Positions 4,050 through 18,598 of a stretch of DNA of 24,000 nucleotides are shown piece after piece. This stretch comes from Propionicimonas sp. (lineage in GTDB: Bacteria > Actinomycetota > Actinomycetes > Propionibacteriales > Propionibacteriaceae). The first letter of the stretch is position 1; each line of letters starts with the position of its first letter. A program made the position numbers and the translations under genes. Location: NCBI RefSeq assembly GCF_013791955.1, contig NZ_VMSW01000002.1. One strand, given 5' to 3'. Under the pieces are notes generated by a model that was not told where the DNA came from, ran no database searches, and saw nothing but the letters and a program-made list of their open reading frames with translations.

Positions 4050-4376
4050 ATGCCAAACCAGCCAGGCCACAACGACACCGTGGTGCTCACCATCGCCCAG
4101 GTCGAGTACCACCCAGGCGGCTTCCCGGTCGGCACGATCACAACGATCACCACCGACACCGCCCACCTCTACAGCACCGCAGACGCCTGGGCACGAGAAC
4201 ACGTCCTCACCGAGACCGAAAGCCTCACCAGAGGCATCCGGCACCTACTCAACCCCACCACGCCACCCAAAGACGGCTTCGCCGGCCTCATCAACAAACC
4301 CACCGGCATCTTCCTCCTCGCGCAGTGGCCCTGGTGTATTCGCCTCCCCCGAGAGATCCAAGCCCTCCTGAGCTAG
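4050..4376 (+). CDS. hypothetical protein whose 5' end has a degraded second copy at 10759-10852
   Basis: 108-aa ORF. Nucleotides ~4056-4132 recur with one frameshifting indel at ~10777-10852. Confidence 0.6.
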   Translation: MPNQPGHNDTVVLTIAQVEYHPGGFPVGTITTITTDTAHLYSTADAWAREHVLTETESLTRGIRHLLNPTTPPKDGFAGLINKPTGIFLLAQWPWCIRLPREIQALLS

Positions 4377-9594: not shown

Positions 9595-9624
9595 GCCCCT
9601 GGCTGCCGCAGCTACACCAGGGGC
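9595..9624 (+). terminator. stem-loop just after the cassette stop (possible terminator, no U-tract)
   Basis: GCCCCTGG (9595-9602) pairs with CCAGGGGC (9617-9624) around a 14-nt loop. It starts 5 nt after the stop at 9590. Confidence 0.3.
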
Positions 9625-9899
9625 CAACAACTCTCACCTAGCGGGAGAAGAAGTCTTGCTCACAGACCACGATACCCGATAGCCCGAATCCTGTCAGCAT
9701 CTCCGAAACCGACAGTCCCTCGCACGCGTGGCCCGCTGCAGCAGGCGACCACGTACCGCCTACTGCTCGCCGAGGACCGCATGGGCCCAAAAGAGCAGGG
9801 ACCGAGCGAGCCGACTAGCGCACCAGGCCTTCACTAGCCACCGTTGACTGAGTGCCGGTGCCGCTGCCAGCAGGTTGCGGTGGGGGTCCGGGTTATGTC

Positions 9900-9928
9900 T
9901 TGCATTACTCGGTGTTTTGTCCTACAAT
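9900..9928 (+). promoter_or_regulatory. sigma-70-type promoter for a leaderless toxin-antitoxin transcript
   Basis: TTGCAT (9900-9905), 17 nt, then TACAAT (9923-9928). The GTG at 9935 lies 7 nt after the -10 box, and there is no SD. Confidence 0.45.
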
Positions 9929-9934
9929 ATTGCC

Positions 9935-10219
9935 GTGGCAGTGAAATGGACCGAAAGCGCAGACAAGCGAGGCATCGACCACAGCGACGCCCTCAACGCC
10001 ATCGCATCAGCCACATACGCCATCCAAGGATTCGGGGACTCAAGGGTTCACACCAGCGGAAGGATCGACCTCTACATCGGCCCAACTCAAGACGGGCAGA
10101 CCGTGCTCGAAGTCATGACCGAGACCACCGGCCGCGACGTCACCGTCTTCCACGTAATGCCCGTGCGGCAGAAGATCCTCGACGCCGCACGGTCCCAACT
10201 CCAAAAGAGGAACAAATGA
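9935..10219 (+). CDS. type II toxin-antitoxin toxin candidate (BrnT/DUF497-like, tentative)
   Basis: 94 aa from GTG 9935 (alternative GTG 9941). It reads KWTESADKRGIDHSDALNAI ... TVFHVMPVRQKI, and its stop overlaps the antitoxin ATG (ATGA at 10216-10219). The toxin-first order fits BrnTA-type pairs. The family call is uncertain. Confidence 0.6.
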   Translation: MAVKWTESADKRGIDHSDALNAIASATYAIQGFGDSRVHTSGRIDLYIGPTQDGQTVLEVMTETTGRDVTVFHVMPVRQKILDAARSQLQKRNK

Positions 10220-10542
10220 CCACCCACACAGACCTGAACGACTTCGCCGAAAACCTAACGGCCCGCGACTTCGCTGGCACCACAGCACACACCGGCGAAC
10301 AAGCCACCACACTGGGCCGCGCCCTACTAGAAAACGCCCTCGGCGGCCCCGAAGGCGTAGACAAAGCACTCGGCGGACGCCCGTCACTGAGCACCGCAGG
10401 CATATCACCATCGCGCACCGTGCGATTGCCCCGCGACCTAGATTCAGCCCTGATCAACCTCGCACGAGCGGAAGGACGCAAACCCAGCGCCATCGTGCGC
10501 GACGCCGTTGCCGACTACCTAGCCCAACACCACGCCAGCTGA
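10216..10542 (+). CDS. ribbon-helix-helix (CopG-like) antitoxin
   Basis: 108 aa. The C-terminal RTVRLPRDLDSALINLARAEGRKPSAIVRDAVADYLAQH fits the RHH pattern. It is translationally coupled to the upstream small gene. Confidence 0.75.
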   Translation: MTTHTDLNDFAENLTARDFAGTTAHTGEQATTLGRALLENALGGPEGVDKALGGRPSLSTAGISPSRTVRLPRDLDSALINLARAEGRKPSAIVRDAVADYLAQHHAS

Positions 10543-10669
10543 CGGAGTACCTACGCCCGTACATAGGAGGAAACTCCTGATGCTGGGACCGCACCTCACG
10601 TGCGTGGGCCGCGCCAACACACGCCAGGGATCGACACAGCTACCCCAAACCACCTACACTGTTTGACGC

Positions 10670-10712
10670 AGACCCCCCCACACACGTGGATCAGGGGGTC
10701 TCGCTGTTTCTC
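10670..10712 (+). terminator. GC-rich compound hairpin followed by a T-rich run
   Basis: AGACCCCC (10670-10677) pairs with GGGGGTCT (10694-10701). An inner CCAC/GTGG pair forms around the CACGTG core, followed by CGCTGTTTCT. Confidence 0.35.
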
Positions 10713-10758
10713 CGGCCTAAACCTCTTGAGGCGCGCGAAAAAGGTCACGCTCAGCCAA

Positions 10759-10852
10759 ATGGGTGCCGTACCACTAACCCAGCCAGGCCACAGCGACACC
10801 GTGCTGCTCACCATCACCCAGGGGCGAATACCACCAAGGCGGCTTCCGTTGC
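10759..10852 (+). pseudogene. degraded 5' fragment of a paralog of the 4050 gene
   Basis: ~10777-10852 aligns by eye to 4056-4132 (AGCCAGGCCACA[A/G]CGACACCGTG[G/C]TGCTCACCATC...GGCGGCTTCC). One extra base breaks the frame, and similarity is lost after ~10852. Confidence 0.5.
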
Positions 10853-10859
10853 CGCTTGA

Positions 10860-10975
10860 CGCGGCGGGCCGGGGGCGCGCGGAAAGAAATCGTGCCGCGC
10901 GGGCCGCCACTGTTTTTCCCTGACCGTCCCTCACGTGCCGGGGCCGCTGCGGCACTAATCCAAAGCGTGTTCCAT
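10860..10975 (-). pseudogene. decayed 5' fragment of a second SARP/BTAD-like gene
   Basis: The minus-strand ATG at 10975 sits in the same SD-ATG context as the intact gene at 13319, but a TAG follows after 6 codons. Downstream nucleotides still resemble the 13319 gene (ATTAGTG..CCGGCAC; GGCAC..CTTCGCG..GGCCC). Confidence 0.35.
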
Positions 10976-11035
10976 CAGGACCCCTTCCTCTCATTCAGGA
11001 GGTGTCTCTTCAGGGCCTCGGTCGGTGCTTCCAAC
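10932..11035. repeat. direct repeat copy X (partner Y at 13287-13382)
   Basis: By-eye alignment gives roughly 75-85% identity over ~100 nt. Shared blocks include CACTAATC, TCCATCAGG, CATT[C/G]AG, GG[A/T]GGTGTC and GGGCCTCG..CGGTGCTTCCAAC. Homology ends at the same CCAAC in both copies. Confidence 0.6.
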
Positions 11036-12457
11036 AGTCTCAACAAACGTTTGGTTCGTTGTTGACCCGGCCAGGACTGGTTGGTCCTGTCGGGTAGCCC
11101 GACTGTGTGGGCGTGTTTGTCGCTCGCGGAATCGGCCGGGGTCGCATCCCCATCGGGTGGCGAACTGGCAGTCGAGATGGGCGAGAACCGCGTCCTTGGA
11201 CATGTGCTGGTCCCGCCCGGCCAGCGAACGTCGCTGGAGGATGACGCGGGAGGCGTTGATGTCGGCGTGGACGCCTTTGCCGCAGAACCCGCACCGGAAC
11301 CGGTCTTGGGTCTTGCGGTTGGTCTTGGTGGTGTAGCCGCAACCAGAGCATTGACGGCTGGTGTGGGCCGGATTCACCGCCGTGACGGTGATGCCGTGAT
11401 CTTCAGTGAGGGCCGCAACTTTGGCGGTAACCGCGGCCCGGCCGGCGATGGTGAGTATCCGGTTCATCCGACGGGACATGCCACCGCCGCGGAAGTCGAG
11501 TTTCTCGACCACGAGCTCGGCAACATTGTCGGTGGCGATCTTGTTGAGGACCCGGCCTACTTCGTTACGGACGTGGCGCCGGAGCCGACGAACCATGGCC
11601 CGGTACCGTTTCGACTGGCTGAGGCGGATGCCTTGGCGTTGCAGGCTGGCGGCAAGGGCCGTCAGTTGGGTGTCGGCGGTGCGGAGCCAGCGGTACAACT
11701 GTTGTCCATGGCGTCTGCCGTCGCTGGTAGCGAACAGGTTCGCCAGCCCCCAGTCCAGACCGAGGACCTTGCCTTCGGACCGTGGGGCCGCGATCGGGGA
11801 GTGTTTGATCACCCGATAGACGATGGGGCCGTGGTCGGGAACATGAACCTGGAGGTAGTTGGCCCGTTGCCCGGCCGCGGCTTGCTCGTAGGGGTTGGTC
11901 CCGAACGGGATCCGGACCGGCCTGGTTCCCGGCACCCCCGAGATCCGTACCCACGTCTGGTGGGGGCCGTTCGGGTTGGCCGGCACCTCATGGGTGGCGA
12001 TCGGACCGTCCATGTTCATCGTCCGGACCGTGGCCAGGTGTGGGAACGGCAGGGTAGTGGACAACAGCCGTTCGACCATCGGTCCTAGTACCGGATGCCC
12101 GAACCACCGCTTAGCTTTGTTGTCCTGATACAGCGCGATCCGGTCCTCATCAGCAACGTCGAGGTCACAGATCAACGCCCTAACTGCGATCACCGCCAGT
12201 TCGCGCCAGGACTCGATAGCGGCGTTGACCTGGTTAACCACACTCTTCCACTGCCGCTGCGACAGATAGCCGGGGAAGGCGCGGGTGTCGAGATAGCCAG
12301 GCCGGATACCTTCCCGGAGCCGCCGCACCACGATCAGTTGAGTGTGAACCAGGCCACGTTGCCACCAGGGCAGAAGATCACGGACCCGCTGCTCCTTGCC
12401 CGGGTTCGCGTGTGACGGTAGTAGATAGGCACGGGTCCGCATCCGGCTATTGCTCAT
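10991..12457 (-). CDS. tnpB: TnpB-like RNA-guided endonuclease (IS200/IS605-family OrfB type), catalytic triad intact
   Basis: 488 aa from ATG 12457 (GGAGG 9 nt upstream). RuvC-I KVLGLDWGLANL, RuvC-II ELVVEKLDF, zinc ribbon CSGCG...CGFCG and RuvC-III VHADINASRV are present. The 57 further upstream codons of the listed ORF are R/P/W-rich and were rejected. The last 15 codons lie inside repeat X. Confidence 0.85.
   Translation of the reverse strand: MSNSRMRTRAYLLPSHANPGKEQRVRDLLPWWQRGLVHTQLIVVRRLREGIRPGYLDTRAFPGYLSQRQWKSVVNQVNAAIESWRELAVIAVRALICDLDVADEDRIALYQDNKAKRWFGHPVLGPMVERLLSTTLPFPHLATVRTMNMDGPIATHEVPANPNGPHQTWVRISGVPGTRPVRIPFGTNPYEQAAAGQRANYLQVHVPDHGPIVYRVIKHSPIAAPRSEGKVLGLDWGLANLFATSDGRRHGQQLYRWLRTADTQLTALAASLQRQGIRLSQSKRYRAMVRRLRRHVRNEVGRVLNKIATDNVAELVVEKLDFRGGGMSRRMNRILTIAGRAAVTAKVAALTEDHGITVTAVNPAHTSRQCSGCGYTTKTNRKTQDRFRCGFCGKGVHADINASRVILQRRSLAGRDQHMSKDAVLAHLDCQFATRWGCDPGRFRERQTRPHSRATRQDQPVLAGSTTNQTFVETVGSTDRGPEETPPE
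11036..11250 (-). ncRNA. putative omega-RNA (reRNA) scaffold overlapping the tnpB 3' end (inferred, not demonstrated)
   Basis: Two adjacent hairpins sit at the 3' extreme. One is TCAACAA/TTGTTGA (11040-11065). The other is CCCG-CAGGAC/GTCCTG-CGGG (11066-11094). They end 4 nt before the X/Y homology breakpoint. The tnpB ORF continues ~86 codons past RuvC-III, as expected where an omega-RNA overlaps the gene. Confidence 0.25.
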
Positions 12458-12665
12458 CGGCGTCGGCCTCCAAGGCGGCGACTGCCGCAGCGGTTCGGCG
12501 TTTGGCCGACCGGAGTCCGTACCGGCGAGCGGCCGAAGCCGTAGATGATCGAGACGAAGTCCAGCGGGCCTCGGCGGCCAGCCAGAACTGATGCGGGCCG
12601 ATCTCCTGGCCCACCCGCCCCGGGTCACATGTGGCCACTTGCCGCAGAGGATAGACCGTGGACAT
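12447..12665 (-). CDS. small hypothetical protein between the SARP-like gene and tnpB
   Basis: 72-aa ORF with ~72% G/C at third positions by my count. ATG 12665 lies 12 nt after the SARP-like stop, and GAGG overlaps that stop. Its own stop overlaps the tnpB start by 11 nt. I recognised no motif. Confidence 0.35.
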   Translation of the reverse strand: MSTVYPLRQVATCDPGRVGQEIGPHQFWLAAEARWTSSRSSTASAARRYGLRSAKRRTAAAVAALEADADEQ

Positions 12666-12677
12666 CAGCCCGCGACC

Positions 12678-13319
12678 TCAGGCCAACGCCAGCGCGGAAT
12701 TGCGCATCGCTGACAGCAGCTCGTCACCGGGCATGACCTGCAGACCGACACCTGCAGCCCAGGCTGCTTGGACCGGTGCGCTCTCGTAGCGGCGGGCCAA
12801 CTCGGTGGCCACGGCGGCGATCCGGATGGTCATCTCGACACGGAGTCGGTCAGCCCATCGGTAGCGGGCCGGATGCACGCCGGCGAGGGGCTGGCCGCTG
12901 ACCAGGCGCAGCGCGGCGGTGAGCTGCGCCGGCGAGCGGGACAGCATCGCACCAGGTGTGTGTCCTGATAGGTCCAGGAAAGCGTGCCAGTCGGTGGCCA
13001 GACGCAGCTGCAGCGAGCCACGCGCCAGATAGGGCCCGTCGGAATCGCCAGCAAGCCAACGCCGAAGCCGCGACACCGCGGTATTGCGCGTGTTCTGGAT
13101 GGTCTCGGCCCGCCGATCAGGCCAAATCGCGTCATCGATCGAGGCTGCGGTCGACGCCGGCACCAGGGCCAGCAGTGCGGCGAGTTCGGTCAGTCGAGCC
13201 ATGTGGGAGGGGTCTGGGGCGGGGCCGTACGCGTCGAGCCGGACAGGGCCGAGGACGCGAAGTGTTGGGGTGCCGCACCAGGTGGCGACGTGTGCCGGTA
13301 GACCACTAATCTGTCCCAT
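12678..13319 (-). CDS. SARP-like regulator (OmpR-type winged helix + C-terminally short BTAD)
   Basis: 213 aa from ATG 13319 (AGGAGG 8 nt upstream). It contains LRVLGPVRLD, IDDAIWPDR...NTRNTAVSRLRRWL and LRLVSGQPLAGVHPARYRWA. It is clearly paralogous to residues ~700-900 of the 956-aa protein at 15728-18598, but it ends ~40-60 aa earlier. Confidence 0.75.
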   Translation of the reverse strand: MGQISGLPAHVATWCGTPTLRVLGPVRLDAYGPAPDPSHMARLTELAALLALVPASTAASIDDAIWPDRRAETIQNTRNTAVSRLRRWLAGDSDGPYLARGSLQLRLATDWHAFLDLSGHTPGAMLSRSPAQLTAALRLVSGQPLAGVHPARYRWADRLRVEMTIRIAAVATELARRYESAPVQAAWAAGVGLQVMPGDELLSAMRNSALALA

Positions 13320-13382
13320 CAGGGAGCCTCCTATGCGCATTGAGCTAGGTGGTGTCCTAGGGCCTCGCGCGGTGCTTCCAAC
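13287..13382. repeat. direct repeat copy Y (partner X at 10932-11035)
   Basis: Covers the 5' UTR, SD, ATG and first codons of the SARP-like gene. See copy X for the alignment. Confidence 0.6.
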
Positions 13383-13392
13383 GCCGCCGGGG

Positions 13393-13414
13393 CCCGCCCA
13401 ATTTCTTGGGCCGG
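13393..13414 (-). terminator. stem-loop between the tad-operon end and repeat Y (possible terminator, no U-tract)
   Basis: GCCCAA-TTTC-TTGGGC at 13396-13411, plus two flanking G:C pairs if one base bulges. It lies ~50 nt downstream of the stop at 13464. Confidence 0.3.
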
Positions 13415-13463
13415 ACGCGGCCAGCTTTGCACGCCCCCCTGACATCTGCCAAGCCCCACACCG

Positions 13464-13922
13464 TCAGCCTGGAACCGGCGTCGAGGTGGTCGGCTGGTCA
13501 CGTAGGCGGATGAGCTGGTCGAAATCGATCCAGGGCAGGCCCATCAGTCCTTGAGCCAGCACGCCCTCCAGTAGGCCCGGATGTAGCAGCGCCGCTGCGG
13601 TGAGCAGCTTCTTCAGCTGGGCGGCTTCGAGTTCGTCGATGGCGTCCTCCTGAGCTGACCGCACCGCAGCCTTGAACCGGGTGCCGAGATCTCGACCACA
13701 CCACAAGCCGCACGCTTGGCGTGCCCGATCACTGGCGCCAACCACCACGCCAGCATCCACCTGCAGGTGGCCAGCAGTGACCAGGTGCTCCAGGTCCTGC
13801 TCTACATCAGATGGATCGAGCCGACCCCGGGCCGCGATCCTGGCCGCGTCGGGGTCCAGGCCGGCATCTAGCAGCAAGATCGCGAGGTGCAGGACGGCAC
13901 CTCCCCGAGATCTCTTCATCAC
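13464..13922 (-). CDS. hypothetical protein, last gene of the tad-linked operon
   Basis: 152-aa ORF. Its ATG overlaps the previous stop (ATGA at 13919-13922). Confidence 0.6.
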   Translation of the reverse strand: MMKRSRGGAVLHLAILLLDAGLDPDAARIAARGRLDPSDVEQDLEHLVTAGHLQVDAGVVVGASDRARQACGLWCGRDLGTRFKAAVRSAQEDAIDELEAAQLKKLLTAAALLHPGLLEGVLAQGLMGLPWIDFDQLIRLRDQPTTSTPVPG

Positions 13923-14304: not shown

Positions 14305-15147
14305 TCACGGCCCCGTCACGACGACTTGGATCTCGGTGATCTGCAGCGACCTCGTGTTGGTCAGCCGGAAGTTGATGTCTCCGGACTGGCCCATGCCGGT
14401 CCAGTGCGCAGTCCAGTAGGTCGTGGCGGTGATGGTGACCCGTCCGCGCTTGTCGTAGACGTGACCACAGGTGGGCGACTTGGTCAGTTTGTCCGGGACG
14501 GTCCACTCGGTGCCTTGCTGGCAGGTCACCTTGTCGCCGTCGCCCATCGACCAGACGACCTTGGTGGCTCGAGCAGTGAGCGTGACTCCGCCGGCGGAAA
14601 TGGTGTTGGGTCCCCACGTCCGCGGGGTGGGGTTCTCGACCCACATCCACACCGGAACACCGACGGTGCCGACATTGCCCGCGCCCTGACGCGGCACCAT
14701 CCCCATATCGATCTTGGTCAGATGCATCTGGCTGAGTAGCTGTCGCGCGATTGTCTCCGGATCCACCGCCGCCACGTACCACCACTCGTCCAAGTACTGA
14801 TTGTCGCCGAGCATCTGGGTGCCGAGGCAGTGGATGTGCGCCCACCCGGGCGGGCCGTAACCCCCATATTGGGGCATGTTGATGTAGAGCCAGTCACCGT
14901 CATCAGGCACCGCGCTGTTGATGTCGAACGCGGGGCAGCGAGGTAGGTCCGGCACCCCATCGCTCCCACCGCCGTCATTGTCTCCGCCACCACCGCCGGT
15001 TTTGTCACACACAGTGCATGTCACTGAGCCACCACCACCGTCCCCACATCCGGGCGGGCACATCTCAGGGGCGGCGTGCGCGGGGACAGCGGTCCATACG
15101 AGTCCAACGAGCGCGGCGGCGATGATTAGGGGTAGTCGCTTCAGCAT
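14305..15147 (-). CDS. secreted Cys/Gly-rich protein of unknown function
   Basis: 280 aa from ATG 15147. Signal peptide MLKRLPLIIAAALVGLVWTAVPAHA, then CPPGCGDGGGGSVTCTVCDKTGGGGGDNDGGGSDG and a beta-rich C-terminal domain (GVPVWMWVENPTPRTWGP...). Confidence 0.75.
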   Translation of the reverse strand: MLKRLPLIIAAALVGLVWTAVPAHAAPEMCPPGCGDGGGGSVTCTVCDKTGGGGGDNDGGGSDGVPDLPRCPAFDINSAVPDDGDWLYINMPQYGGYGPPGWAHIHCLGTQMLGDNQYLDEWWYVAAVDPETIARQLLSQMHLTKIDMGMVPRQGAGNVGTVGVPVWMWVENPTPRTWGPNTISAGGVTLTARATKVVWSMGDGDKVTCQQGTEWTVPDKLTKSPTCGHVYDKRGRVTITATTYWTAHWTGMGQSGDINFRLTNTRSLQITEIQVVVTGP

Positions 15148-15731
15148 CCGGAGACCACCTGCCCACCGGCTTGCCACACTTTGAAGGCCTTCGCACCCTT
15201 GGCCTTGCGTAGCTCGTAGGTGCGGAGGAGGTAGGGGACGTGGACGGCGCTGTCTGTGATCTCAGCACCCTTTTTGTCCGTCACGCGGGTTGCCGTCTGG
15301 TCCTTGCAGAAGGTGACGGTGATGGACGTCGAGGTCCCGGCTGTGGTCGGGTCGCCGACTTTGGTGGTGACGATCTTCTGGTCACCCGTCTCCGACCACC
15401 CCGCCTGATTCCACTGGTTGCGGGCGGTGAGTGCGGCCTGGATCATCGGCGCGTCGCTGATCGGCTTGAGGATCTTGATCATGGTGAGCTGGCCGGTCAT
15501 TCGGGGGTCGTGTCGCATCCGCGCCAGCAGATTCTCAAAGGTGGTGGCGTTGGCGAGGGCTGTCGCTTGGTCCGGGCTGTAGGTGGGCGTCGGGTTCGGC
15601 GACGGCACTGGGGTGGCCGAAGGGGTGGCGGTCGGGTCGATCACCGCTTGGGAGGTCGTGCATCCAGCGAGGAGCACGGCGGCGAGCGCCGCAGCGGCGG
15701 CTGCGGTCCAAATGCGGGGGCGGGTACTCAT
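15141..15731 (-). CDS. lipoprotein of unknown function
   Basis: 196 aa from ATG 15731 (ATGA overlap with the previous stop). Lipobox LLAGC follows a signal-like N-terminus, then a Pro/Thr-rich linker. Confidence 0.75.
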   Translation of the reverse strand: MSTRPRIWTAAAAAALAAVLLAGCTTSQAVIDPTATPSATPVPSPNPTPTYSPDQATALANATTFENLLARMRHDPRMTGQLTMIKILKPISDAPMIQAALTARNQWNQAGWSETGDQKIVTTKVGDPTTAGTSTSITVTFCKDQTATRVTDKKGAEITDSAVHVPYLLRTYELRKAKGAKAFKVWQAGGQVVSGC

Positions 15732-18598
15732 TGGCCAATCGCTTTCTCCCACGCACGGTGGGGATCAGTGGCCAGGTCGGCCAGCAATTCGTTGGTCTCA
15801 GGCTCGAGTTCGAGGCCGAGCTCATCAGTCACGGCAAGGAGGCGCGCCTTTGCCTCTTCGAAGGCGGCGTGGTCGCCGGAGTGGTGCGCGGCCAGTATCC
15901 GCAGCCGCCACAGATGCTCCAGGGCTGGCTCGATCGCCAGCGCCACCACCACGGCGGCTTCCACACCGCGGCAGTCGTTGGCCATCAGACGCCGGCGGCC
16001 CAGCTCGTAGGAGGCCTCGACGATCTCGGCAGTCATCTGCTGCCGGGCGGGCTCGGCCCACGCGTAGCGGCGAGGATGCACACCGGCGAAGGGGCGGCCG
16101 CGGACGAGCTTGAGAGCGGCGTCCAGCTCGGCAGTGGAGGCGTGCTGGGCGCCGCGGTGCAGCAGCTGCTGCCACGTCGACCAATCACTGACCACCCCGC
16201 GCAGCTCGTACCGGTTCAGCGGCAGGTACAGCTCACCGACAGTGTTTTGCCCCAACCAACGCCGCAACTTGCTGGTCGAGGTGTTCCGCGTGGTGGTGTT
16301 GTCGTCACGGGCACGGTCGGGCCAGATCGCGGCATCGATCTCGCCAGCTGGTGAGGCGGGGTTGAGGTGGAGGTAGGTGGCGTACTCGAGCAGTCGGCGG
16401 CTCTTGGACGGCTCGACAGGGCCGTCAACGCCGTCAATCTCGACCGCACCCAGGAGCCGGATCGTGGGAACCGGGCCCGGCAGGGCGGTTACTGGCGCCG
16501 GATCCGCAGTTGCAGTCTCATCCTCGACGGCCGGAGCCTCTGGTGTGGTGTCGACCTGCTTGGTGGGCAGAGCGATCACCACACGCGACTCAGGAGCCGC
16601 AGGAGGGCTTTGGCCGTCCAAGACGGTGTCGAGGAAGCCTGGAGCGTCATGGGTGGCCACAGGGGCCTCCTGAACCGGCTCTGGGGCTGTGATGAGGTCG
16701 TCGTAGGTTGCTGCGGCGACCAGGTTCAGCATTTCGGTGTAGGCGGTCGCGGGGATTAGCTGCGGGGTGAGCCGCAAGCCGACTGGCTGGAGGGTGGCGC
16801 TGCGGTCGGGGTGCAGCTGCAGCGCCCACTCCCCCAGCGGCTCAATACCGGCACCGGTCACCGCGGCGATCGCGACCCGCGGCACATCCTCCACCAGCCC
16901 GGTCAGCAGGTTGCGGTGGCGGGCGGTGAGGTCGCCGGCGATGATCACGATCTCCGGCGACCAGGTCGACGGGGCGACCCGGCACAGGCGGGCGTCGGCC
17001 ACATCGTCAGCGCCGGCATCGGCCAGCGCCTGATGGTCGGCGGTGGTGCGGCCTTCCAGGTCGGCGATCGCGAGCTCAACGGTGGGCAGGTAGCGGACCC
17101 GTCCGGTCTGCAGAGCGCCCTCGAGCTCGGCGAAGGCCCCGACGACGGTGACGGTGAGGTCGTCGGCCCAGGGGCTGACGGCGAGCTCGATCGCCAATGC
17201 GGCCAGCGCTTCGCGGGTGGCCTCGGTGTCGCCGACGATTCCTAGCGACCCGAGGTTCTCTAGGTCGACCAACACGTTGGAGTGCTCCTCGTCCTCACCG
17301 ATCGTGACCAGCGACGGGTAAGGGGCGGGGATCTCCGACAGGTCCTCGCCGGGCATGTCCTCGGCATCAACGCCGTCCAGCATCCACACCGTGCCATCGG
17401 CGGTGCCCCGCCACGGCGCCGGCATATCGGCGGCATCGGTCAGGAATAGCTCGAAGCGGTCGGCGGACAGGCGGGCGGCGTGGATGGTCGGTAGCGCAGT
17501 GTCATCGGCGGCAAGGTCACGCGAAAGGGCGCGCAGGGCGGTGTCGACGATCGCCAAGCTGAGCGGGGCTGCGGCGGCGCGCAGTTGCTGCTCGGTGGCC
17601 GCGGCGGCGGGGTCGGGCATCGGGATCCGCAGACCGGGACGCCAAGCGCGCAGCTGCCGGCGGCGGCGGTAGGTGAGCAGGCTGATCACACCGGCAGCCA
17701 CCACGGTGCCCACCCCGGCACCGATCGCCCACAGCGGCACCGGGTCGGCCTCCACCGACGCGTCGACTGTCGGAGTGGCCGGAGACTGCGACTGCGCCGG
17801 CGCCGATTCAGCAGGGGCTGCTGGGGCCTCTTGCGGGGCTGGGGCTTGCTGCTGGACCGGTGCGGTGGCCGGCGGAGTCTCCACCGGAGCCGAATCCGTG
17901 GGTGCCTGGGTGGCCGGCTGGTCGCCGTGTTTGTGCTCGCCCCCGCCGGTGGCCTTCTGTGGCACCTCGAGGGTCCAGCCGATATCGATCATGTCCGGAT
18001 CCTGCAGGCTTTCACCGCCAGGCTGGCGAATGTCGGTGGATGCCTTGTAGATCTGGGGCCATTTGTGGGCGTCACCCAAGTGCTTCTCGGCGAGCTCGCT
18101 GAGGGTGTCGCCCTTGTGCACCGTGATCTTCTTCACGTGCGCAGGCGCGGCCTTGTCCTTGACGACGGGCGCCGTCGGAGCATGGCTGGCGCCAGCCGCC
18201 GGCGGCGGCGTGATTGGCGCTGCAGCAGCCGATGTGATCGACCCGAGCATCGGAGCCGCCATGAATAGCACCGCGGCGCCGGCAACCATCTGTCGCGCCG
18301 CGGCCTGACCCAGCTGCATGCCGGGGATCCGGGGTGCCGGCGTGCGCCGCACCGCAGCGACGATCTCGACCAGGATCGCGGCGGCCAGATACGCCCACGC
18401 CACCCAGGCCACCACCGTCAGCAGCGCGGAGATCAGCGTGCCGTCATCAGGCATCGACAAGCGCACCCACAGGTCCGGCCACGACACAATCCCCGCCCGG
18501 GCAGGGTTGAACCCGACCAGCAGCAGCGCTGCCGGCACACCGGCAATAACCACCAGTAGGCCGAGCAGTGAGCTGAGTCCCACAATCAGACGCCGCAT
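15728..18598 (-). CDS. polytopic membrane protein with extracellular LysM and cytoplasmic winged-helix + BTAD (SARP-like) domains
   Basis: 956-aa ORF with GAAGGG upstream. It has three N-terminal TM helices, LysM (ITVHKGDTLSELAEKHLGDAHKWPQIYKAS...IGWTLEVP), a Pro/Ala-rich linker and a fourth TM (LWAIGAGVGTVVAAGVISLLTYRRRRQLR). The C-terminus carries RLLGAVEIDG...IDAAIWPDR...TSKLRRWL...LKLVRGRPFAGVHPRRYAWA. Confidence 0.9.
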   Translation of the reverse strand: MRRLIVGLSSLLGLLVVIAGVPAALLLVGFNPARAGIVSWPDLWVRLSMPDDGTLISALLTVVAWVAWAYLAAAILVEIVAAVRRTPAPRIPGMQLGQAAARQMVAGAAVLFMAAPMLGSITSAAAAPITPPPAAGASHAPTAPVVKDKAAPAHVKKITVHKGDTLSELAEKHLGDAHKWPQIYKASTDIRQPGGESLQDPDMIDIGWTLEVPQKATGGGEHKHGDQPATQAPTDSAPVETPPATAPVQQQAPAPQEAPAAPAESAPAQSQSPATPTVDASVEADPVPLWAIGAGVGTVVAAGVISLLTYRRRRQLRAWRPGLRIPMPDPAAAATEQQLRAAAAPLSLAIVDTALRALSRDLAADDTALPTIHAARLSADRFELFLTDAADMPAPWRGTADGTVWMLDGVDAEDMPGEDLSEIPAPYPSLVTIGEDEEHSNVLVDLENLGSLGIVGDTEATREALAALAIELAVSPWADDLTVTVVGAFAELEGALQTGRVRYLPTVELAIADLEGRTTADHQALADAGADDVADARLCRVAPSTWSPEIVIIAGDLTARHRNLLTGLVEDVPRVAIAAVTGAGIEPLGEWALQLHPDRSATLQPVGLRLTPQLIPATAYTEMLNLVAAATYDDLITAPEPVQEAPVATHDAPGFLDTVLDGQSPPAAPESRVVIALPTKQVDTTPEAPAVEDETATADPAPVTALPGPVPTIRLLGAVEIDGVDGPVEPSKSRRLLEYATYLHLNPASPAGEIDAAIWPDRARDDNTTTRNTSTSKLRRWLGQNTVGELYLPLNRYELRGVVSDWSTWQQLLHRGAQHASTAELDAALKLVRGRPFAGVHPRRYAWAEPARQQMTAEIVEASYELGRRRLMANDCRGVEAAVVVALAIEPALEHLWRLRILAAHHSGDHAAFEEAKARLLAVTDELGLELEPETNELLADLATDPHRAWEKAIGQ

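Follow-up and report, generated by a model that had tools for sequence, protein, structure and literature searches.

The question that this locus raises is why an intact nuclease gene of the TnpB type should stand directly behind a regulator gene and point in the same direction. In a 24,000-nt stretch of Propionicimonas sp. DNA (contig NZ_VMSW01000002.1, assembly GCF_013791955.1; hereafter the window, meaning the whole stretch), a SARP/BTAD-like regulator gene, a 72-amino-acid (72-aa) open reading frame (ORF) and a tnpB gene follow one another on the minus strand, and an earlier reading made from the letters alone (the sequence-only reading) had described them as one unit bracketed by ~100-nt direct repeats, X and Y. 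The feature is a new, divergent remnant of an IS607-family insertion sequence (IS), most probably a decayed and immobile one (frameshifted tnpA tail, intact tnpB, right end) lying in a variable, recombination-prone slot after the regulator of a mobile island. The spacings first reported hold, with 12 nt between the regulator stop codon (12678-12680) and the ATG of the small ORF (12665), and an 11-nt overlap of the small ORF with the tnpB ATG (12457), but the unit dissolves, as the ORF is no gene, the regulator is island backbone, and tnpB is the survivor of an IS607 element. The features concerned are the following.

13320-13382, minus strand: Y, conserved 5' leader of the SARP-fold gene (24-nt core 13359-13382; GGAGG before the ATG)
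12678-13319, minus strand: SARP-fold regulator gene, 213 aa, full length (ATG at 13319)
12562-12677, minus strand: 116-nt stretch from the SARP stop to the tnpA remnant, presumed to hold a deletion junction
12447-12665, minus strand: 72-aa ORF, a spurious frame of unmatched sequence, out-of-frame tnpA and in-frame tnpA tail
12462-12561, minus strand: remnant of tnpA, IS607 serine recombinase (codons ~156-188, in two frames)
10991-12457, minus strand: tnpB, 488 aa, intact; its last 14 codons and stop read through the IS end into X
11034-11200, minus strand: IS right end with the presumed ωRNA scaffold, overlapping the tnpB 3' end (upstream limit approximate)
11012-11033, minus strand: putative ωRNA guide position, the first 22 nt past the IS end
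10964-11035, minus strand: X, leader remnant of a second SARP gene, with a ribosome-binding site (RBS), ATG (10975-10973) and three more codons (M-E-H-A)

The tnpB gene, its lost transposase and its right end

The transposase remnant was located by tblastn with the TnpA of contig L014, which matched in two pieces: AARRYGLRSAKRRTAAAVAALEAD at 20 of 24 positions (E 4e-7; 12533-12462), and DFVSIIYGF at eight of nine, in the other frame (12561-12535). In the DNA alignment of the tnpA region, homology begins at ~12561 and one extra G shifts the frame; upstream of ~12561 neither tnpA homology nor a left end was detected. The IS has lost its left end and ~155 of 188 tnpA codons, with ~33 codons left and frameshifted, and therefore cannot move. 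Serine-recombinase sequence directly upstream of tnpB, typical of IS607, is present as a remnant only, and the intact tnpA and left end of an autonomous element are absent. The last 24 residues of the 72-aa ORF match the C-terminus of the IS607 serine recombinase, with a frameshift, and the ORF matched no family in Pfam or NCBIfam; it is an accidental frame over decayed sequence, not a gene. Since the left end is deleted, no space remains between regulator and tnpB for such an end or for a promoter, as had been noticed from the spacing. No terminator-like site was found on the minus strand between the SARP gene and tnpB, and an alignment with left ends of Nocardia copies gained no boundary, the upstream motifs common to those copies being absent from the window.

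The 488-aa protein matched the Pfam families Cas12f1-like_TNB and OrfB_IS605 and the NCBIfam model guided_TnpB (103 bits, cut-off 100), and it scored 33 bits against a cut-off of 350 with the NCBIfam IS607_TnpB model. RuvC residues D235, E318 and D399 and zinc-ribbon residues C370, C373, C389 and C392 occupy invariant columns of a 12-member family alignment, which bears out the earlier statement that the D-E-D triad and zinc ribbon are intact and that the protein is not of the TldR type. The nearest relatives (P0002, P0003 and P0004, 56-58% identity) each stand behind a 188-aa Resolvase-domain tnpA, in contigs L014, L018 and L029, with no SARP gene nearby, and in two Nocardia neighbourhoods examined (L001, L007) no SARP-like neighbour was found. 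The window tnpB is thus the nuclease gene of an IS607-associated actinobacterial clade. The sequence-only reading had itself said that element ends within 12457-12677, in copies of tnpB without a SARP-like neighbour, would speak against one unit; this is what was found, with the relatives behind tnpA and the tnpA remnant (12462-12561) inside that interval. L014, L018 and L029 are phage-like contigs with rIIB-like, NlpC/P60 and methyltransferase genes.

The exact 488-aa TnpB occurs on 20 public contigs from several samples, the longest being 75 kb (metagenome-assembled genome GCA_018897675.1, Propionicimonas sp. according to NCBI), and its neighbours are the same in all 20. This single context indicates one insertion and gives no sign of further copies; the several copies or empty sites by which a mobile IS607 element would be recognised were not seen among these contigs. 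Megablast of window positions 10500-13500 against plasmid and phage collections gave no DNA match, and a scan of viral contigs with the TnpB alignment found no relative.

The right end of the IS is ...GAGACTGT at 11034, one base from the start of X. The copies in the window, L014, L018 and L029 are alike up to ...GA(G/A)ACTGT, after which all flanks differ, so that a sharp boundary common to independent copies, as in IS607 elements, is present. All four right ends finish in ...ACTGT, that is, in GT, rather than in GG, the usual terminal and crossover dinucleotide of the IS607 family. The consensus fold of the right end has four compensatory pairs (limited covariation) and one hairpin with a different sequence in every copy. 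In the window, the 5' half of the terminal ωRNA hairpin is gone (a 10-nt deletion relative to the relatives), an alternative hairpin can form, and the region folded alone gave z = -1.5, which is not significant; with its predicted terminal hairpin altered, the state of the window ωRNA is uncertain. An Rfam search found no match at gathering thresholds in the whole window, and none at E<=1 in 9600-13500.

From the right-end boundary and the known architecture of TnpB and ωRNA, the guide would be read from 11012-11033 (TGGAAGCACCGACCGAGGCCCT). This stretch matches Y at 20 of 22 positions, with mismatches at guide positions 12-13, and the match sits 40-63 nt upstream of the SARP start codon. Its flank in Y is GGCGT, as against GGTGT at the left-end flanks of the three relatives; a reading of GGTGT as the target-adjacent motif (TAM) is drawn from those three flanks, where it is inseparable from the first IS bases.

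Repeat X, the island regulator and a probable order of events

Repeats X and Y are real. Their 24-nt cores (11012-11035 and 13359-13382) agree at 22 of 24 positions, with no further copy in the window and two such matches in none of 100 shuffles; a global alignment of X and Y had 73 matches, a score reached in none of 1000 shuffles, also when the core was removed. Both copies begin with GTTGG (CCAAC on the plus strand), the common limit that had been seen at the outset, and the tnpB stop at 10991 places 14 codons and the stop within X, in keeping with the earlier observation that X supplies the last 15 codons. The length was overstated: robust homology of X covers ~75 nt, from 11035 to about 10964, and the last ~28 nt of what was called a ~100-nt repeat (10949-10922) are better taken as a degenerate CRISPR-like repeat. 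X aligns with all Y-type leaders of sister islands from GTTGG through RBS and ATG and ends after ATG GAA CAC GCT, which fits the M-G-H-A start of several regulator orthologues. A tblastn search of the window with the regulator and with the C-terminus of a 956-aa protein, also encoded in the window, found no SARP coding sequence downstream of X. The leaders in L021 and L023 read GGTGT|TGGAA and Y reads GGCGT|TGGAAG, and the GT common to IS end and leader fits the two-base crossover site of a serine recombinase. Together, the GT junction, the GGTGT/GGCGT flanks and the homology of X indicate that an IS607 element inserted into a SARP leader, at GT|TGGAAG, and the match between ωRNA guide and leader follows from that insertion.

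The regulator belongs to the island. The DNA of the window and of sister contig L021 is 79% identical from the type II secretion system (T2SS) genes to the SARP stop codon, breaks off at 12678 and resumes from the CoiA gene; this unbroken homology, through Y and the regulator to its stop, marks the regulator as island backbone. The window carries genes of the Tad-pilus/conjugation type (T2SSE, two T2SSF, TadE-like genes, TcpC, helix-turn-helix regulators) together with the 956-aa protein, which has a BTAD domain, a CoiA-like nuclease and a toxin/ribbon-helix-helix (RHH) pair, and no tRNA was found in it. The contig carries a Tad-pilus/conjugation-type mobile island, with the SARP-fold regulator as the last gene of its conserved backbone. 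Y aligns with the leaders of L021, L023 and L025, with homology extending upstream of GTTGG. Regulator orthologues are 213-217 aa long (57-88% identity); truncation of the regulator by the IS was considered and ruled out, all orthologues being of the same length.

That the regulator is a SARP/BTAD protein stands as to its fold, without direct support from a family model: the 213-aa protein matched nothing in Pfam or NCBIfam, Pfam BTAD (PF03704) and Trans_reg_C were also absent from seven orthologues, and no SARP protein came up when PDB sequences were searched with a profile. An AlphaFold2 (AF2) model from 12 sequences (predicted local distance difference test, pLDDT, 79.5; predicted template modelling score, pTM, 0.79) was used for interpretation, an earlier model from eight sequences (pLDDT 39) being unusable. 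Its best Foldseek matches were the SARP domain of AfsR (8k60; E 8e-5, TMq 0.59) and EmbR (2fez), and the predicted fold consists of an N-terminal winged helix and a helical BTAD part, as in SARP proteins. Residues 700-869 of the 956-aa protein align with the regulator at 45% identity (E 5e-30), residues 811-939 of that protein match BTAD (E 2e-7), and distant regulator homologues carry PF03704. The name SARP-fold regulator is justified by this fold and by transitive homology. The 956-aa protein (15728-18598) is paralogous to the small regulator over its C-terminal ~250 aa and has orthologues of 958-978 aa in all sister islands; the small gene resembles a free-standing copy of that C-terminal domain.

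The bracketing of the block by X and Y had raised the possibility of a larger mobile unit with the regulator as passenger, in which Y, the SARP gene, tnpB and the right end would move as one and X would be the start of a truncated tandem copy. Duplication at the level of a module does occur in this island family, as seen in L027, where a module of SARP gene, TnpB gene and array lies between 58-62-nt direct repeats and a second SARP copy with a TnpB remnant lies on the same contig. Against such a unit in the window, synteny in at least five sister islands places Y and the regulator in the backbone, with homology reaching far upstream of Y and ending exactly at the SARP stop; X and Y are only ~78% identical over the first 76 nt of X, and X resembles a leader from a different island lineage more than it resembles Y; the IS end at 11034 lies inside the block and not at its edge; and the 20 contigs have one genomic context, a like-ended unit in multiple contexts not having been met. 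We reject this composite as very improbable.

The favoured course of events is as follows. An IS607 element would first have entered a SARP-type gene region at GG(T/C)GT|TGGAAG, about 60 nt ahead of the start codon, and the right flank of the element, X, would therefore be a SARP leader read by the guide position of the ωRNA. Two deletions or illegitimate joins would have followed: one would have removed the DNA between the end of the first SARP gene and mid-tnpA, and the other the second SARP copy from its codon 5 onward, as far as a relic repeat. As tnpB no longer has a promoter region of its own, its transcription would depend entirely on read-through out of the SARP gene, which would make the three frames look like one operon. 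We infer the order and number of these rearrangements and the read-through, and TnpB and ωRNA may or may not still be active. Among the explanations first offered, an IS between two tandem SARP paralogues comes closest to this account, with the corrections that the IS is not a tnpB-only one but of the IS607 family, that it is truncated at its 5' end, and that the second SARP copy consists of a leader and four codons.

The same structure might have arisen by capture of a fragment, a ~1.6-kb piece of a sibling island (tnpB and the right end, with some of tnpA before them and ~75 nt of SARP leader behind) pasted into the array region by end-joining or recombination, in which case no tandem SARP copy was ever present here. 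X is nearer to an L023-type leader (85% over 73 nt, E 4e-17) than to its own Y, both junctions lie at non-homologous sequence (the 116 nt on one side, the relic repeat on the other), and sister locus L028 has truncated IS607 pieces inside the same slot. A donor with a full IS607 element in a SARP leader was not found, however, and L027 carries a similar leader remnant with MGHA, ending ATGGGACACGCT, behind its array, a hint that a leader copy occupied this position before the IS did. We give capture an appreciable probability beside decay in place, though less than even.

The slot behind the regulator in sister islands

Wherever the context of a regulator orthologue (at least 57% identity) could be resolved, the next gene in the same direction was a TnpB-family gene or its remnant. 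The contents of the slot, with the backbone sites matched by array spacers and the relic repeats of the window, are as follows.

L021, L022, L031: regulator, 522-aa TnpB, six 28-nt repeats with 33-nt spacers; module without tnpA, L021 8877-10786
L027, L033: regulator, 530-aa orthologue (69% identical), three repeats; module without tnpA, L027 11076-12829
L032 (second regulator copy, on the L027 contig): regulator, N-terminal remnant of the 530-aa gene
L042, L043: regulator, 529-aa TnpB, four repeats; module without tnpA, L042 4001-5803
L028, 10655-12750: regulator, resident TnpB gene cut after codon 17 and joined there to a tnpA without its 5' part (residues ~58-188), then another TnpB of 445 aa
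L028, 3' part of the slot: last ~45 codons of the resident TnpB gene and two repeats
L046, 4001-5667: resident-type TnpB and two repeats, without tnpA and with no SARP-fold gene upstream
Backbone sites matched by spacers: L021 7352-7384 and 13192-13160; L042 1372-1405; L027 451-483 and 6525-6558; window 14324-14356
Window 10922-10949, minus strand: solo degenerate CRISPR-like repeat, 86-89% identical to all six L021 repeats, overlapping the tail of X as first delimited
Window 10586-10612, minus strand: solo repeat, degenerate, of the sister-island array type
Window 9711-9738, minus strand: solo repeat, degenerate, of the sister-island array type

The resident 522-530-aa proteins are 50-57% identical to Streptomyces and Kitasatospora members of what NCBI names IS607-family TnpB, reach Cas12m with E 1e-4 only, and have RuvC motifs that look intact. 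L044 holds a truncated copy of a resident-type TnpB beside an IS110 and, as L046 shows, the link to the regulator is not absolute. Within the 67-92% subclade of these proteins, four island types have so far shown a SARP-fold gene directly before TnpB, and L044 and L046 have none there. The array period is 61 nt (28-nt repeat, 33-nt spacer), or 66-69 nt in L027 and L028. No cas1, cas2 or other adaptation genes were found near the sister arrays within the flanks examined. An effector gene adjoins a repeat-spacer array in L021, L027, L042 and L046 but not in the window, where three solo repeats remain at irregular spacing and the resident effector is gone. Two of these, at 9711-9738 and 10586-10612, flank the toxin/RHH-antitoxin pair (9891-10540), which is 78% identical to the pair after the array in L028. 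L028 offers an independent parallel to the window: there the central part of the resident TnpB gene has given way to a truncated IS607 element.

Array spacers in the sister islands agree with backbone DNA of the island family at 27-30 of 33-34 positions: L021 spacer 1 has matches in its own island and in the window (14356-14324), L042 spacer 3 in L042 and L027, and L042 spacer 1 in L027. The 5' flanks of the matched sites are ACCAA (five sites), CGGCA (two) and GCGAA (one), and flanks in common suggest a TAM and targeting of related islands or, with mismatches, of self. To judge from these alignments, the TnpB-array looks like a working RNA-guided system directed against related islands, or against self with few mismatches. 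The first spacers of L027 are pieces of a SARP-type leader.

Several side observations concern the same region. In L027 (9757-10035, 12546-12993 and 12667-12870), the regulator has neither a leader nor a start codon of its own, fragments of a SARP-type leader occur among the repeats of the downstream array with 10-14-nt overlaps at each repeat, and TnpB 3'-end remnants, one repeat and a 58-nt trailer lie upstream of the regulator; the arrangement looks like a permuted or duplicated module. Several independent assemblies of one sister island, among them the four contigs L023-L026, break ~470 nt after the regulator, and the common break point points to an element present in multiple copies. Two copies of a 48-nt direct repeat (87.5% identity) lie in the window at 10800-10847 (downstream of X) and 4079-4125, 6.7 kb apart, and a 48-nt element with a GACCCCC/GGGGGTC hairpin and no Rfam match is 98% identical between window 10667-10714 and L027 15921-15968, in islands whose backbones are only ~60-70% alike. 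By eye, 12562-12677 and the N-terminal half of the 72-aa ORF had resembled the start of the resident 522-aa TnpB gene, an impression that failed a shuffle test.

Several points weigh against a simple decayed remnant. The account calls for no fewer than three events, the insertion and then two deletions or joins, and no donor island with a full IS607 element in a SARP leader was found among the islands examined. For the 116 nt at 12562-12677 no source was found, local alignments with the post-SARP regions of five sister loci scoring no better than shuffles. The tnpB gene has no disabling mutation though tnpA is nearly gone; this could reflect recent decay or selection for the nuclease. In favour of a remnant, retention of tnpB after loss of tnpA is well known in the literature. 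TnpB-family genes or remnants of three different lineages behind the regulator exceed what random insertion sites would lead one to expect. The putative guide matches the leader of the adjacent regulator at 20 of 22 positions, and a spacer of the resident array in L027 targets the same SARP-leader motif.

These points bear on a functional pairing, the third explanation first offered (an operon of RNA-guided nuclease and DNA-binding regulator), here in the form that the island has recruited the immobilised TnpB and its ωRNA, which would share a transcript with the SARP-fold gene and, in place of the lost resident effector, act on leaders of the SARP type. The island family would then keep a slot for an RNA-guided effector behind its SARP-fold regulator, usually occupied by an immobilised IS607-type TnpB with an array aimed at related islands; in the window, an unrelated IS607 TnpB with its guide fixed on the SARP leader would have replaced it, expressed from the regulator promoter and serving as an autoregulatory brake (binding its own operon despite two mismatches) or as a weapon or gene drive against sibling islands with a better-matching leader. 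Consistent with this are a tnpB ORF with intact catalytic residues beside a destroyed tnpA, the lack of a terminator-like site between the genes, the position of the guide match upstream of the SARP start codon, the TnpB-family gene or remnant that always follows the sister-island regulator, resident arrays whose backbone spacers have a common 5' flank and of which one is directed against a SARP-type leader, and literature precedents for relatives of TnpB and Cas12 as transcription regulators or tools of plasmid competition. The guide match, however, is automatic after insertion into a leader copy and needs no selection; Y in the window has two mismatches and GGCGT where the relatives' left-end flanks have GGTGT; the last ωRNA hairpin has lost 10 nt relative to the relatives; the clade of the window TnpB has no SARP association elsewhere; and the known RNA-guided repressors of the TnpB family are nuclease-dead, which the window TnpB is not. 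We therefore hold both the takeover in the window and the wider scheme of a maintained effector slot to be unlikely, while giving them some weight. An operon of regulator and nuclease is accordingly not shown for the window tnpB; at the level of the slot, as the sister islands show, the pairing of regulator and TnpB is real.

Comparison with known systems and significance

The feature in the window, taken alone, is an ordinary outcome, with the transposase lost and tnpB kept, and once it is read as an IS607 remnant, neither the apparent three-gene operon nor the 72-aa ORF nor the bracketing repeats call for a further explanation. The setting is of more interest: in the same position, sister islands carry a TnpB-array with spacers against the backbone of their own island family, and two further IS607 elements have landed independently in this ~2.5-kb module. 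If confirmed, the sister islands would offer a natural transition from TnpB to a CRISPR-like system in conflict between islands or in self-control, with a SARP-fold regulator as constant neighbour, and the window an example of an IS-borne guide frozen onto a regulatory leader. A functional takeover, if true, would place a nuclease-competent TnpB next to a SARP regulator, a pairing so far undescribed: the forms catalogued in surveys of exapted TnpBs are linked to sigma, SpoIIE, flagellin, DppD, RHH and PrimPol, with no SARP/BTAD partner among them, in agreement with the sequence-only reading, which knew of none.

Compared with SARP regulators of the AfsR, EmbR and ActII-ORF4 type, the regulator is alike in its winged helix and BTAD fold but is short (213 aa), with a shortened BTAD part and no Pfam BTAD or Trans_reg_C match, and its gene lies on a Tad-type mobile island and not in an antibiotic gene cluster.

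Compared with the IS607 family (IS607, IS1535, the Clostridium botulinum IStron), the window is alike in having tnpA sequence that immediately precedes tnpB and reaches with its 3' end into the tnpB start-codon region, in the RuvC D-E-D motif and zinc ribbon of TnpB, and in a right end that overlaps the tnpB 3' end, with a flank-supplied guide and a G-rich target flank. It differs in that its left end and most of tnpA are deleted, leaving it non-autonomous, in that its right end finishes ...CTGT and not in the usual GG, and in matching no Rfam family (ωRNA-type families included), with a TnpB 56-57% identical to its nearest relatives.

TldRs and other exapted TnpBs (flagellin-, DppD/OppF-, sigma-, SpoIIE- and RHH-associated) resemble the window in being immobilised tnpB genes without a transposase at the distal end of a host or island operon, with a guide position that matches leader or promoter-proximal sequence of a nearby gene. 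The catalytic triad of the window TnpB is intact, whereas TldRs have an inactivated RuvC; association of clade and partner is not conserved in the clade of the window, and the guide match is explained by the history of insertion.

The sister islands, finally, resemble TranC systems and plasmid-borne type V-M (Cas12m) loci in pairing an immobilised IS607-type TnpB with a regular array, without tnpA, in having spacers aimed at related mobile elements, and in the transcription regulator next door, as in plasmid V-M loci. The window differs from both in being reduced to three solo repeats with the effector gone. The sister effector is much closer to Streptomyces and Kitasatospora IS607 TnpBs (50-57%) than to Cas12m.

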